Assembly (NCBI GenBank): GCA_964390545.1
Contig: CAYMJV010000002.1
Location: 15,555-79,554, forward strand
Reading direction: 5' to 3'
Source of the DNA: an uncultured Syntrophaceae bacterium
Lineage (GTDB): Bacteria; Desulfobacterota; BSN033; UBA1163
DNA length: 64,000 nucleotides
Position numbers and translations under genes: made by a program. The notes beneath the pieces are model-generated. The model ran no database searches. It saw nothing but the letters and a program-made list of their open reading frames with translations, and had not been told where the DNA came from. How positions within the stretch are numbered: position 1 is the first letter of the stretch; every line of letters begins with the position of its first letter. Of this stretch, positions 19,139-57,764 are shown piece after piece.

Positions 19139-19154
19139 AGCAAATGTTATGCCA
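19139..19154 (-). promoter_or_regulatory. Sigma-54 promoter of minor-pilin module A
   Basis: The minus strand reads TGGCATAACATTTGCT, that is TGGCAT-N5-TTGCT with exact GG/GC spacing. About 170 nt upstream of the module A first gene. Confidence 0.7.
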
Positions 19155-19360
19155 CCCATGATGAAGTTTCATAATCTGTCGAAATCTGTGACGATTTTCT
19201 GTTCTGCCAAAAAAAATAACTGCGACTTTATCACAAATTTGTTGCTTTAATTATGAAATTATTAAAAAGCTTAAGACGGTATCTGGTTAGAGTCTCTGAA
19301 GTACAGAATCGGAGAGAGGATTTTAGGGTCTACCTGCACGAATTCAGATCTAGAAAAAAT

Positions 19361-19496
19361 GGGGGATCAATTTACCCCGTTAGAAAGCCCCGCTGCCTGC
19401 AGCGGGGATGAAGATAATTCCCTTATGGGAGCGAACACGGGGTTTAATGCCCCGTGTGAGCCTTCCCGTTAGAGGGCCGAAGGTCTTCTAACGGGG
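19361..19496 (-). terminator. Compound multi-hairpin element / probable terminator-insulator between module B and module A
   Basis: Four consecutive GC-rich hairpins begin 2 nt after the stop at 19498. They are 19465-19495 (14 bp, GAA/TTC loop), 19436-19456 (CACGGGG/CCCCGTG), 19388-19407 (CCCCGCTG/CAGCGGGG) and 19361-19378. The last is followed on the minus strand by AUUUUUUC. Confidence 0.5.
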
Positions 19497-19497
19497 T

Positions 19498-20487
19498 TTA
19501 CCTTACCTCAATCGCCAGTGTATACTGTTGATAGCTTCTCGCTCCTTCATTATCCGAAACCTCAATTTCAATCGAATGGGTTCCTTTATCTTCTTTGCGA
19601 ATCTGCCACTGGAGCAAACCCGACTTTGGATCTATCCCCATGCCCTTCGGCCCTGATTTCAATGTGAACGTGATTGGATCATTATCCGGATCATTGGCCT
19701 TAACTTGATAGAGATATTTCGTCCCTTCGATAGAGGTAGGGGGGGAGGATACAATGGTGGGTGGACTGTTGGAGATCTTGACGGGTTCTGATTTTTTCGG
19801 TGCCCCCATGATCTCCCGGTCATCAGGAATGATGGTGACGGAAATCGAATCTCCCTTCGTGAATCGAACTCGCTCCAACATGTCCTTCCTCTCGCCCATA
19901 AGGGCGGCTCCATTTTTTTCCCATTGATAGGAAAAAAAGATGGAATCTCCGTCTGCATCCGTACTCTTTTCATGGACTGTCAGATCATTTTGGATGGTAG
20001 GCATTTGGGGTTCAATCCAGGCCTCACTGACAACGGGGGCAGCATTCAGCATCTTCACCGGATTGGAAAGAAACGGTTTACCGTCTCCTTTCCCGTCTGA
20101 GGGGATGACTCTAACCTGAAACATATCCCCCTTTCTAAAGCTCCCAGCTTTCAGGACATTGCCACTCTCTCCAGCGATCTCTATATCGTTCTTGATCCAT
20201 TGATAACGGTAATTCACCAAATCTCCATCCGAGTCCTGGCTCTGGATGACTAAGCTCAAATCATTCTCCCGGGTGGGTCTTTCTGGTAGAATGGTCACCA
20301 ATGTGATGGTGGGAAGCGAATTGGCCTTCGTTTTGGAGGGAGGTTCTGCTGCCTTCTGGCCTTCACAGGACAAGGGGACGACGATACAAGACAGTAGAAG
20401 AAAGAAGGTTACGGCTTTAGTCAGTGACCATAATCCACGGGGCTCTGCTTTATTGAATGAAGGGATAGAGATGTTTCTCTTTTTCAT
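19498..20487 (-). CDS. Lipoprotein with two ~95-aa Ig-like repeats and a cadherin-like (He_PIG-type) domain
   Basis: Lipobox (LLLSC / PLSC). Two repeats share D-DGD..Y-YQW-KN...KGD..V-V-P-D. The C-terminal segment YLYQVKANDPDNDPITFTLKSGPKGMGIDPKSGLLQW matches the putative-Ig/cadherin-like pattern. The start was taken at ATG 20487, while the track ORF starts at 20559. Confidence 0.6.
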   Translation of the reverse strand: MKKRNISIPSFNKAEPRGLWSLTKAVTFFLLLSCIVVPLSCEGQKAAEPPSKTKANSLPTITLVTILPERPTRENDLSLVIQSQDSDGDLVNYRYQWIKNDIEIAGESGNVLKAGSFRKGDMFQVRVIPSDGKGDGKPFLSNPVKMLNAAPVVSEAWIEPQMPTIQNDLTVHEKSTDADGDSIFFSYQWEKNGAALMGERKDMLERVRFTKGDSISVTIIPDDREIMGAPKKSEPVKISNSPPTIVSSPPTSIEGTKYLYQVKANDPDNDPITFTLKSGPKGMGIDPKSGLLQWQIRKEDKGTHSIEIEVSDNEGARSYQQYTLAIEVR

Positions 20488-20809
20488 GAATATATTTAGG
20501 AAGAAGATATATCTTTTCTGCAACCACTTTTTTGTCAGCCTCATGCCTTGTGCCTTCAAGATAGACCCAGACCTTTGCTCTCAACCGATCTGCAGTAATG
20601 GTGGACTCTTTCTCATTATAGAAAATTGTATTCGGGCCCCAGAAAAACATCCTCTCATTAACAATCATCATGTTCTTCTTCAAATCCAGCTCCATCACTC
20701 TCCCCTGAAGTCTAACTATACTTTCATCCAACGCAAAAGTCAAAGAATAAATAACCAAGACCAAGAAAATAACGAGGGCCACCCCATGATAGAGAAATTT
20801 TCCCTTCAC
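20450..20809 (-). CDS. Small signal-anchored protein, paralog of 16330..16677 (positional PilY2 analog)
   Basis: 119 aa with an N-terminal TM or signal helix. Pattern shared with 16330..16677. Begins 14 nt after the PilY1-B stop. Confidence 0.6.
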   Translation of the reverse strand: MKGKFLYHGVALVIFLVLVIYSLTFALDESIVRLQGRVMELDLKKNMMIVNERMFFWGPNTIFYNEKESTITADRLRAKVWVYLEGTRHEADKKVVAEKIYLLPKYIHEKEKHLYPFIQ

Positions 20810-20822
20810 GTCTTACCTCCTA

Positions 20823-56909: not shown

Positions 56910-57016
56910 CTAGGCCTCTCGACGGCAAACCCTATAGACAGGGAGTGCTACAAAGGCAAAGAGCGACATAACAGTCATGAAAACTACAAGCTCAATCAAA
57001 GTGCGAAGCCTTTTCT
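56910..57016 (-). pseudogene. Frameshifted relic of a pilin 5' end
   Basis: The minus strand encodes ...KGF in one frame, and after a 2-nt insertion TLIELVVFMTVMSLFAFVALPVYR in another. T2-L-I-E5, P22 and Y24 have exactly the spacing seen in the neighbouring pilins. There is no start codon, and the stop comes after about 35 codons. Confidence 0.55.
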
Positions 57017-57082
57017 TTCCGAGGAGAATACCGTCTGGATCTCAATAAGACCTTGCTTGAACCATCGTAGTTTGAAATCAAG

Positions 57083-57134
57083 AAAACCTCGGGCAATCCT
57101 TGCTGGCTTCCAAGCAAGGATTGCCCGAGGTTTT
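57083..57134 (-). terminator. Strong intrinsic terminator after the major pilin gene
   Basis: Perfect 22-bp inverted repeat AAAACCTCGGGCAATCCTTGCT / AGCAAGGATTGCCCGAGGTTTT with an 8-nt loop, 19 nt after the stop. On the minus strand it is followed by UUUUCUUGAUUU. Confidence 0.85.
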
Positions 57135-57152
57135 TAGGTTAGCATCAAACGA

Positions 57153-57608
57153 TTACTTCTTCGGACGATAGGCCGCCGGGATTGTTCCAGCCCAGAACCA
57201 GTTGATTGCACCGTCCGTCGATACGACAGGACTCATTACGTAAGTTGAGCCGTCCACCGTACTCTCACCCGTATTGGTCGCTGTGAAAGTGATGACCCCA
57301 CCACCAGCAGATATGTTGACTGCAGAAATGTATTTCCCATCCGGAACCACAGGGATAGCCACACCTAAGGTTGTCTTAATTGTTCCGGTCGCAATAAGAG
57401 CGACCTGAGGAAAGGTACCCTCATCCTGGTAAAAGGCCGCTACCGCACTCGCCACATTACTCATGCTGTTCGATACTTCTGTGAGCTTTGCTTTGACCGT
57501 CTGAGCCCTGTACATCGGGATGGCGATCGCTGCAAGGATACCGATGATGGCGATAACGATCAACAACTCAATCAATGTAAAACCTTTCTGTCCTCTCATT
57601 CTTAACAT
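57153..57608 (-). CDS. pilA: Major type IVa pilin
   Basis: [47 protein letters not shown]. Monocistronic, lying between a sigma-54 promoter and a strong terminator. Cysteine-free. Confidence 0.85.
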
Positions 57609-57748
57609 GACTTAAACCTCCTTTAATGAGCTTTGTGCCCTTTAGATTGACGTTTAGTTTTCCAAAATCATTAGCCTCATTCGTTTCAAAACCTAAAAAC
57701 CTCTCGCCTTTCTTTTTTCTTGATCACCTCCTTTTATTGAATTCGTTA

Positions 57749-57764
57749 GCCTTGATAGAGCATA
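57749..57764 (-). promoter_or_regulatory. Sigma-54 promoter of the major pilin gene
   Basis: The minus strand reads TGGCATGGATTATGCT, that is TGGCAT-N5-ATGCT with exact GG/GC spacing. About 140 nt upstream of the pilin ATG. Confidence 0.7.

Follow-up and report, generated by a model that had tools for sequence, protein, structure and literature searches.

The 64,000-nt window of DNA analysed here (the whole stretch, to whose positions all coordinates below refer) is, as judged from Pfam scans and long open reading frames (ORFs), a type IV pilus supercluster, nearly all of whose genes run in one direction, on the minus strand. Its G+C content is 43.8 % and 7.3 % of it is intergenic. The host is an uncultured member of the Thermodesulfobacteriota, a sulfate-reducer-type bacterium, and the nearest genomes are uncultured Thermodesulfobacteriota ('delta proteobacterium') metagenome-assembled genomes, in which the transcriptional activator that we call EBP2 is at most 81 % identical. 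The features of concern are five sigma-54-type (−24/−12) promoter elements, which stand before the major pilin gene, a glycan block, two minor-pilin modules and a signalling operon.

By Pfam assignment the left end of the window is occupied by pilQPONM (112–5680). Just upstream of these genes an operon (5838–11406, minus strand) encodes a response regulator (RR) with a DUF4388 domain, a Roadblock/MglB-like protein, a small Ras/Arf-like GTPase (MglA-like), a CheW-like protein, a PAS kinase and the NtrC-type activator EBP1; we refer to it as the RR operon, and it looks like a polarity and signalling module for pilus motility. Beyond a divergent TPR gene (12036–13103) come minor-pilin module A (13308–18971, minus), which encodes GspH/FimU-, PilV-, PilW- and PilX-like proteins, a DUF5666 protein and PilY1, then a gene for an Ig-domain protein (19498–20559) and minor-pilin module B (20823–25465, minus) with PilV-, PilW- and PilX-like proteins and a PilY1 of its own. 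These are followed by the NtrC-type activator EBP2 (25798–27177, minus), which has a GAFTDA loop and is 'PilR' by position, a HAMP histidine kinase (27253–28926, minus) and the prepilin peptidase gene pilD (28950–29714). About 23 kb of sugar genes (29781–53069, minus), of which the first encodes a winged helix-turn-helix (wHTH) regulator, separate pilD from a GT4 glycosyltransferase gene, a PD-(D/E)XK gene and a GT2 glycosyltransferase gene (53259–55797). The pilin genes, for a ComP-like pilin, pilA2 and pilA1, lie at 55885–57608, and an operon for two methyltransferases and a 525-aa membrane protein (58362–61387, plus) is divergent from pilA.

An earlier note on this DNA had listed four minus-strand sigma-54 sites. 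Three of them are exactly where it placed them: TGGCATAACATTTGCT before module A (19139–19154, 167 nt before the ATG at 18971), TGGTATAGGTTTTGCA before module B (25499–25514, 33 nt before a TTG start at 25465) and TGGCATAGAAGTTGCT before the wHTH gene and the glycan block (53239–53254, 169 nt before the wHTH ATG). The pilA1 element, TGGCATGGATTATGCT, exists but was placed ten bases off; its true position is 57759–57774 (minus), not 57749–57764, which puts it 150 nt before the ATG at 57608. The list was also incomplete, in that it overlooked a fifth, perfect-consensus element, TGGCACTTATTTTGCT, at 11468–11483 (minus), 61 nt before the ATG of the RR operon at 11406. All five elements are intergenic, lie on the minus strand 33–169 nt before a start codon, match TGGYAY-N5-WTGCW without mismatch and have GG and GC exactly 10 nt apart. 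A weak candidate for a sixth, TGGCTCAAATGTTGCA (58251–58266, plus), stands 95 nt before the divergent methyltransferase gene; it is kept in the closest relatives only, and other lineages have sigma-54-like sites elsewhere.

The pattern TGGYAYN5WTGCW has six matches in the window where 0.28 are expected, and none of 100 shuffles gave six or more. Five of the six are intergenic, each on the strand of the gene downstream; the sixth (15272, plus strand) is inside a PilY1 gene, antisense to it. In 1.79 Mb of relatives' DNA the 16-mer occurs 1.5 times per 100 kb inside ORFs and 46 times per 100 kb outside them, a 31-fold difference in which the intergenic figure is inflated, the loci having been chosen around these genes, while the coding density is a fair background of about one per 64 kb. 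The equal density in coding sequence that would have spoken against the sites is thus not what is found. Footprinting across some 170 related loci (labelled in the style L001–L170) showed the pilA, wHTH/glycan, module B and RR operon elements as invariant islands in diverged DNA. Because of the enrichment, the bias of strand and position and a conservation confined to the GG and GC blocks around a free spacer, we judge the elements to be real sigma-54-type promoters, not chance matches; as sequence motifs they are real and far above chance. That the 16-mers are accidental, or serve some other purpose in which sigma-54 has no role, we consider extremely unlikely: such a view could appeal to the position of rpoN, which lies outside the window, but it has to set aside all of the features just named, as well as the presence of two sigma-54 activators within the cluster.

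Those two activators, both NtrC-type with GAFTDA loops and adjacent kinases, are correctly described in the earlier note. EBP1 (5838–7214) and EBP2 match PF00158 with E-values of 1e-67 to 1e-75 and have intact sigma-54 interaction domains; GAFTDA is a common natural variant, found in 36 of the 74 loops in the relatives' DNA. EBP2 has no PilR-specific match in NCBIfam, its best matches being sub-threshold AtoC/NtrC models, and the PilR label comes from gene context only. EBP1 is the last gene of the RR operon, which is headed by the fifth sigma-54 element. This element is present as TGGCAC(T/C)(T/C)A(T/A)TTTGCT (with TGGTAC once) in 7/7 relatives (L009, L010, L165, L167, L168, L169 and L170), at a distance of about 25–60 nt from the start codon in those whose gene start is known. 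Approximately 104 nt upstream of it is a conserved 40-nt block (11557–11597, minus), which in the window contains the inverted repeat AATGGNNAA-ATA-TTGACCATT overlapping a conserved TTGACC-N17-TATAAT; the repeat, perfect in L165 (AATGGTCAA-ATA-TTGACCATT), shows two mismatches in the window. The block could serve as an enhancer or as a sigma-70 promoter, or combine the two roles, and the EBP1 operon probably has two promoters and autoregulates.

The pilA1 gene (57153–57608, minus; Pfam N_methyl and Pilin) is preceded by what reads in its sequence as a textbook enhancer–IHF–promoter layout, every part of which is conserved; the enhancer of a sigma-54 promoter usually lies 80–200 bp away, and an IHF site is often found in between. 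The element has the form TGGCAY-N5-WATGCW in 12/12 loci that reach pilA, all of which share its unusual A at −14. About 155 nt upstream of the −24 element lies a putative enhancer palindrome of the TGT-N10-ACA type, TTTGTC-N8-GACAAA (57912–57931), of which the window has one exact copy and whose TGTC-N8-GACA core is found at −150 to −155 in all 12 pilA loci. Between enhancer and promoter, 38–50 nt upstream of the element and in a conserved block of the alignment, is an IHF-consensus site, TATCAATTAGTTA (57812–57824, minus), an exact match to WATCAANNNNTTR. The pilA leader, ~140 nt long, has an invariant Shine–Dalgarno-like sequence, AAAGGAGGTGAT (57723–57734, minus), close to its predicted 5′ end, some 15–25 nt in. 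This perfect anti-16S match, conserved in the 12 loci, precedes the real ribosome-binding site by more than 100 nt, is followed by no start codon and may be a 5′ mRNA-stabilizing element. A strong bidirectional terminator-like hairpin with a 20-bp stem (57085–57132) directly follows pilA1 on its 3′ side. The two major-pilin paralogues, pilA1 and pilA2 (within 56436–57608), are closely related; pilA1 has the sigma-54 promoter and a strong terminator after it, and a promoter of pilA2 and the ComP-like pilin gene could not be identified. The products of the divergent trio (58362–61387) may be pilin- or glycan-modifying enzymes. The methyltransferase/methyltransferase/525-aa arrangement is conserved, with the large gene often duplicated in relatives; the 525-aa protein has no match in Pfam and PDB sequence searches and only a weak, sub-threshold, Agl23-like match in NCBIfam.

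EBP2 is located directly upstream of module B in all relatives. In five genomes with 79–81 % EBP2 identity the gap between EBP2 and the first minor-pilin gene is 222–553 nt long and largely unalignable, and the module B element is an invariant 17-nt island (TTGGTAYAGGTTTTGCA) about 35–45 nt before the start codon in 5/5 relatives (L005–L008 and L033). A second conserved block (…AACTTTTCATAA…) is found across relatives about 125–135 nt upstream of the element; the block in the window, CTTTTCATAA (25634–25643, minus, ~125 nt upstream), is not palindromic, is unlike both the pilA palindrome and the RR repeat, and is a candidate activator site. The more distant L010 and L017 also have consensus elements before minor-pilin operons. 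An IHF consensus upstream of module B (25691–25703) was dismissed, as it is not conserved in relatives.

The earlier note had put module A in the same promoter class, which holds insofar as the window has a sigma-54 16-mer there; among seven relative lineages, however, only L009 shares one (TGGCATATTATTTGCT), and what is conserved instead is a sigma-70-type promoter. The six lineages without the element (L007, L008, L033, L165, L167 and L170) have ATATTGACAAA-N17-TAAAAT, of the sigma-70-type form TTGACA-N17-TAAAAT, directly before the first gene. The window has a sigma-70-type promoter as well (TTGACA-N17-CAGAAT; 18989–19017, minus), directly before module A and ~120 nt downstream of the sigma-54 element, and L009 has the sigma-54 element and no sigma-70-type promoter at this junction. 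No upstream enhancer for module A was found. Taken at the level of promoter sequences, module A in this clade is mainly sigma-70-driven. We note that G+C-rich hairpin-forming repeats (CCCCGTTAGAAG…CTCTAACGGGG, ACGGGGCATTAAACCCCGT and CCCCGCTGCAGGCAGCGGGG) lie at 19363–19497, 3′ of the Ig-domain gene; they look REP-like or terminator-like and separate module B and the Ig-domain gene from the module A promoters. Before pilM, in the gap at 5681–5837, the window and its relatives have a conserved TTGACT-type sigma-70-like promoter. Since a consensus sigma-54 element precedes pilM in L170 (15988) and L012 (14054) and not in the window, the comparison suggests that sigma-54 promoters before pilus operons turn over between lineages.

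Only 4 nt separate the glycan element at 53239–53254 from the stop codon of the GT4 gene that precedes it; in other loci the preceding gene is a different one. A metagenome scan with the wHTH protein yielded 80 loci (54–100 % identity), and about 50 of the approximately 58 that have enough upstream DNA carry a full sigma-54 element, with TGGCA[TC] and TTGC[AT] essentially fixed and a 5-nt spacer that varies freely. Anchored column conservation detected no conserved block upstream of the wHTH element, and when palindromic dyads were sought de novo in the DNA preceding the wHTH and module B elements, none was common to more than 12 of 44 sequences. The conserved parts of the leader are 3′ of the element and consist of TTCAA-N4-TTA, a T-run (53142–53149 in the window) and a palindrome, GTTCR-N5-YGAAC, that is represented here by TGTTCA-N5-TGAACG (53117–53133), 106 nt downstream of the −24/−12 element. 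The palindrome is present in 59/63 loci with invariant arms and 41 different spacers. Its distance from the sigma-54 element is 94–111 nt (median 107, with one case of 129), and that to the start codon is anything from 43 to 265 nt. In L107 (3437–3565) and L129 (6880–7011) an extra sigma-54 element stands before the GT2 gene that follows the pilins, with the palindrome at +97 to +100; the window has at this GT2/pilin junction merely an 87-nt gap and a terminator-like hairpin (55824–55857). In L128, L134, L135, L141 and L153 the T-run and palindrome immediately precede another glycosyltransferase gene and have no sigma-54 element in their vicinity, and in L124 the palindrome is 258 nt from the sigma-54 element. 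A second exact copy in the window, GTTCAAAGTTTGAAC at 27273–27287, falls at the 3′ end of the kinase gene and precedes the start of EBP2 by 110 nt, a place in which it could have tied the glycan operon to the activator; we treat it as probably due to chance, because it occurs only in the near-identical strains L001–L004 and is absent from the relatives with 77–81 % identity.

The gene downstream of this leader (52440–53069, minus; Pfam HTH_24/MarR) encodes a wHTH regulator of the MarR/EPS-associated type (EPS, exopolysaccharide) with an uncharacterized C-terminal half. Its best match, TIGR04176 (MarR_EPS), scores 65 bits, below the cutoff of 88, and covers positions 5–98 of a 105-position profile; the protein extends about 100 residues beyond the length of the model. 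The recognition helix (A42–C49) is invariant across homologues. The C-terminal half, with its extra domain of ~100 residues, is modelled by AlphaFold with low confidence (mean pLDDT 62). A Rex-like reading, with a wHTH and a Rossmann domain, was rejected when a profile search of solved structures gave only weak matches to wHTH/MarR/Lrp domains.

Behind the wHTH gene are about 22 co-directional glycan genes (29781–52473, minus; largest gap 111 nt) for glycosyltransferases, methyltransferases, AsnB-type amidotransferases, radical SAM proteins, a flippase, sugar-nucleotide enzymes and a TPR protein. The central sugar genes differ between strains, whereas the ends, namely promoter, leader and wHTH gene on one side and GT4, AsnB and TPR genes on the other, are conserved (L085, L092, L134 and L143 included). 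In L085 the wHTH protein is 100 % identical and the product of the next gene 56 %, a drop that suggests a recombination breakpoint at the junction of the two genes. The island has the pattern of a hypervariable surface-glycan locus. A search for intrinsic terminators inside the block gave only chance-level intragenic matches, and a single long transcript, possibly continuing into pilD, the kinase gene and the EBP2 gene, is plausible. Upstream of the island the PD-(D/E)XK (PDDEXK_3) gene (54452–54835, minus) lies between the GT2 and GT4 genes. Many related loci have it (78–100 % identity); L088, L110, L111, L143, L144 and L160 lack it.

We take the leader palindrome GTTCR-N5-YGAAC to be most likely the operator of the MarR/EPS-type wHTH regulator encoded just downstream, and favour the view that it marks the starts of glycan sub-operons, because it also stands where there is no sigma-54 element and because the gene immediately downstream encodes a MarR-type regulator whose recognition helix is invariant. 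It could alternatively be a downstream enhancer, to which an NtrC-type activator binds about 125 bp downstream of the −24/−12 element and from which it loops back, helped by an IHF-like TTCAAnnnnTTA and the T-run in between. The narrow range of its distance from the promoter while that to the start codon varies so widely, the recurrence of the element/palindrome pair at the second sigma-54 site of L107 and L129, the lack of a conserved upstream dyad together with the exchange of the upstream gene between loci, and a 6-N5-6 geometry that resembles the RR-operon repeat and, as general knowledge has it, NtrC-type sites are all consistent with this. Yet the five loci with T-run and palindrome and no sigma-54 element, and the 258-nt separation in L124, do not fit it, and the adjacent MarR-type regulator offers a simpler explanation, so that we think an enhancer function unlikely. 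We give still less credence to the further proposal that the glycan promoter has its obligatory enhancer downstream in the leader and forms with it a portable cassette heading strain-variable sugar operons near pilins; if it were true, the cassette would couple the hypervariable surface or pilin glycan to a sigma-54 input distinct from that of pilA. The palindrome is also possible as an RNA hairpin, against which stand a lack of covariation and of any Rfam match; a scan of the window at gathering thresholds, long leaders included, found no known RNA family. Of a different kind is the doubt about module A, whose element might be non-functional or recently acquired, with transcription coming from the sigma-70-type promoter or by read-through from module B. 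The absence of the element from six of seven lineages, which share ATATTGACAAA-N17-TAAAAT, and the sigma-70-type promoter of the window itself speak for this, and we regard it as a serious if somewhat unlikely alternative: the 16-mer is of perfect consensus and correctly oriented where, from base composition, ~0.04 would be expected in all intergenic DNA of the window, the independent L009 has a sigma-54 element with no sigma-70-type promoter in this place, and sigma-54 sites come and go before pilM or minor-pilin genes in L170, L012, L010 and L017.

The earlier note had joined the promoters into one regulon, which can be upheld at the level of the sigma factor and not as common control, since the pilA enhancer is absent from the other promoter classes. 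A search of the rest of the window and of 46 wHTH upstream regions for the pilA palindrome turned up none. Counted by promoter class, TGTC-N8-GACA stands upstream of 0/6 module B, 0/7 RR operon and 0/2 module A elements, and in 2/44 wHTH promoters at scattered positions, which is the chance level. A copy with one mismatch 191 nt upstream of the wHTH element was discounted, as it recurs in only two relatives and lies in coding sequence. We therefore consider it probable that the cluster is a sigma-54 stimulon with several separate activator inputs, and not one co-regulated PilR regulon, because there is no shared pilA enhancer and there are two activators, one of which ends its own sigma-54 operon. 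In a single PilR regulon the kinase/EBP2 pair would activate all of the sigma-54 promoters, and fibre, tip complexes and glycan would be made together. One promoter class whose sites all lie within 46 kb around EBP2, the constant position of EBP2 directly upstream of module B, and the many Geobacter loci, pilus and cell-wall genes included, that are predicted to pair PilR sites with sigma-54 promoters (PMC6058289) would suit such a regulon; so would a TTTGTC half-site ~150 nt upstream of module B in the window, which relatives lack. We nevertheless find it improbable in view of a pilA enhancer that is present in 12/12 cases at pilA and missing or at chance level elsewhere, of a second activator in the cluster with a sigma-54 promoter of its own, and of the conserved sigma-70-type promoters that module A and the RR operon also have.

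Several points weigh against separate inputs, or against parts of the map on which they depend. Promoters that share no enhancer by sequence need not have different activators, since degenerate or non-palindromic sites can be bound by one and the same activator, and motif discovery upstream of the wHTH promoter is made difficult by the coding sequence there. Of the RR 'palindrome', only the right half shows good conservation, and that half falls on a −35 hexamer; the module A element is poorly conserved. The choice of background loci inflates the intergenic 16-mer density and leaves the coding density unaffected, and with rpoN outside the window, sigma-54 dependence is a prediction. The presence of the motifs, their statistics and conservation and the layout of the conserved blocks are direct observations, from which we infer the pairing of activators with promoters, the roles of the palindromes, the extents of the operons and the use of sigma-54.

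With several inputs, five transcription units (pilA1, the wHTH-led glycan block, module B, module A and the EBP1 operon) would start at sigma-54 promoters, and sigma-54 RNA polymerase would wait as a closed complex on each GG-N10-GC element to be remodelled by an NtrC-type activator bound close by. At pilA this would be achieved through the enhancer–IHF–promoter arrangement with its PilR/NifA-type TGT-N10-ACA palindrome, at the EBP1 operon through a different palindrome overlapping a conserved sigma-70-type promoter, and at module B through a third conserved block that is not palindromic. Module A would combine a conserved sigma-70-type promoter with a sigma-54 element that is specific to the lineage and lies upstream of it, and the glycan promoter would operate with no recognizable upstream enhancer, followed by the T-run and GTTCR-N5-YGAAC ~107 nt downstream.

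Control of pilA by sigma-54 and PilR is established in Pseudomonas, Myxococcus and Geobacter (PMC6058289, PMC6211767, PMC2725144), and activators are usually encoded near their targets (PMC2725144). The cluster resembles the PilS/PilR–pilA systems of P. aeruginosa, M. xanthus and G. sulfurreducens in having an activator and a kinase in the pilus cluster and a −24/−12 promoter at pilA, followed here by a strong terminator. The TGT-N10-ACA enhancer is like the quoted hallmark of PilR sites, a NifA-like TGT-N11-AGA plus GTCT elements (PMC6058289), and the IHF site between enhancer and promoter may be compared with Geobacter RpoN promoters, at which IHF has been studied (PMC7962754). It differs in that pilA is ~30 kb from the activator with the glycan island between them, and in that EBP2 is called PilR by position and has only sub-threshold AtoC/NtrC-type matches in NCBIfam. 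PilS, moreover, is a multi-pass sensor, unlike the HAMP-domain kinase of the window.

To regard the placing of these operons under one promoter class as unusual, as the earlier note did, is overstated, given the Geobacter pilus and cell-wall sites (PMC6058289, PMC2725144) and EPS loci (PMC3162934, PMC1569441). In Geobacter, predicted PilR sites beside sigma-54 promoters were reported at 54 loci, many of them before pilus, flagellar and cell-wall genes (as cited in PMC6058289). The predicted extended PilR/RpoN regulon of G. sulfurreducens, a member of a related delta-proteobacterial group, is similar to the window in its predicted sigma-54 promoters before pilus-biogenesis and cell-envelope genes (PMC6058289, PMC2725144); the difference is that the PilR site is shared there, whereas the pilA-type site of the window is confined to pilA and the other promoters have other blocks. 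A comparative study ties sigma-54 generally to genes for exopolysaccharide, lipopolysaccharide, flagella and peptidoglycan (PMC3162934), and PEP-CTERM EPS loci have a sigma-54 motif and a PrsK/PrsR/PrsT system (PMC1569441). The window shares with these loci, and with the notion of sigma-54 as a 'controller of the bacterial exterior', a −24/−12 promoter that heads EPS-type genes (PMC1569441, PMC3162934), a MarR/EPS-type regulator as first gene, and a TPR protein, a kinase and an NtrC-type activator beside glycosyltransferases and several AsnB-type amidotransferases. It departs from them in that the operon behind its promoter is long and biosynthetic, where those loci have the promoter before single PEP-CTERM genes, and in the scores of the PrsR (403 against a cutoff of 503 bits) and PrsT (61 against 312 bits) models. 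No exosortase or PEP-CTERM protein was seen among the Pfam matches of the window ORFs, and with PrsR, PrsT and MarR_EPS all below cutoff, identification as a PEP-CTERM or PrsKRT-regulated EPS locus was rejected.

Like fimU-pilVWXY1E of P. aeruginosa, with its FimS–AlgR/Vfr control, the minor-pilin and PilY1 genes have their own operon, which would be regulated apart from pilA. Since the P. aeruginosa operon is described as Vfr/cAMP dependent (PMC6058289), the conserved sigma-54 elements before module B and the minor-pilin operons of L010 and L017 represent a modest difference. The wHTH regulator in turn is similar to MarR autoregulators, with its gene directly downstream of an invariant palindrome that also lies ahead of other glycan sub-operons, and with an invariant recognition helix; it differs by its additional C-terminal domain, which is modelled with low confidence, and by a putative operator that is ~107 nt downstream of a sigma-54 promoter, not overlapping a sigma-70 promoter.

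The general picture of sigma-54 as a regulator of pili and surface polysaccharides, which has precedent in Geobacter, Myxococcus and PEP-CTERM loci, is unchanged by these observations. What they provide, with good support, is a regulatory map of the type IV pilus supercluster in an uncultured clade of Thermodesulfobacteriota that is widespread in the environment. Its concrete cis-elements are three conserved blocks that differ from one another and, in about 60 loci, a leader palindrome linked to a promoter; between close lineages, sigma-54 promoters before pilus operons are seen to be gained and lost. Enhancer-dependent transcription would in this clade govern the pilin, the minor-pilin/PilY1 tip module, a polarity and signalling operon and a variable glycan island, each through a cis-architecture of its own.

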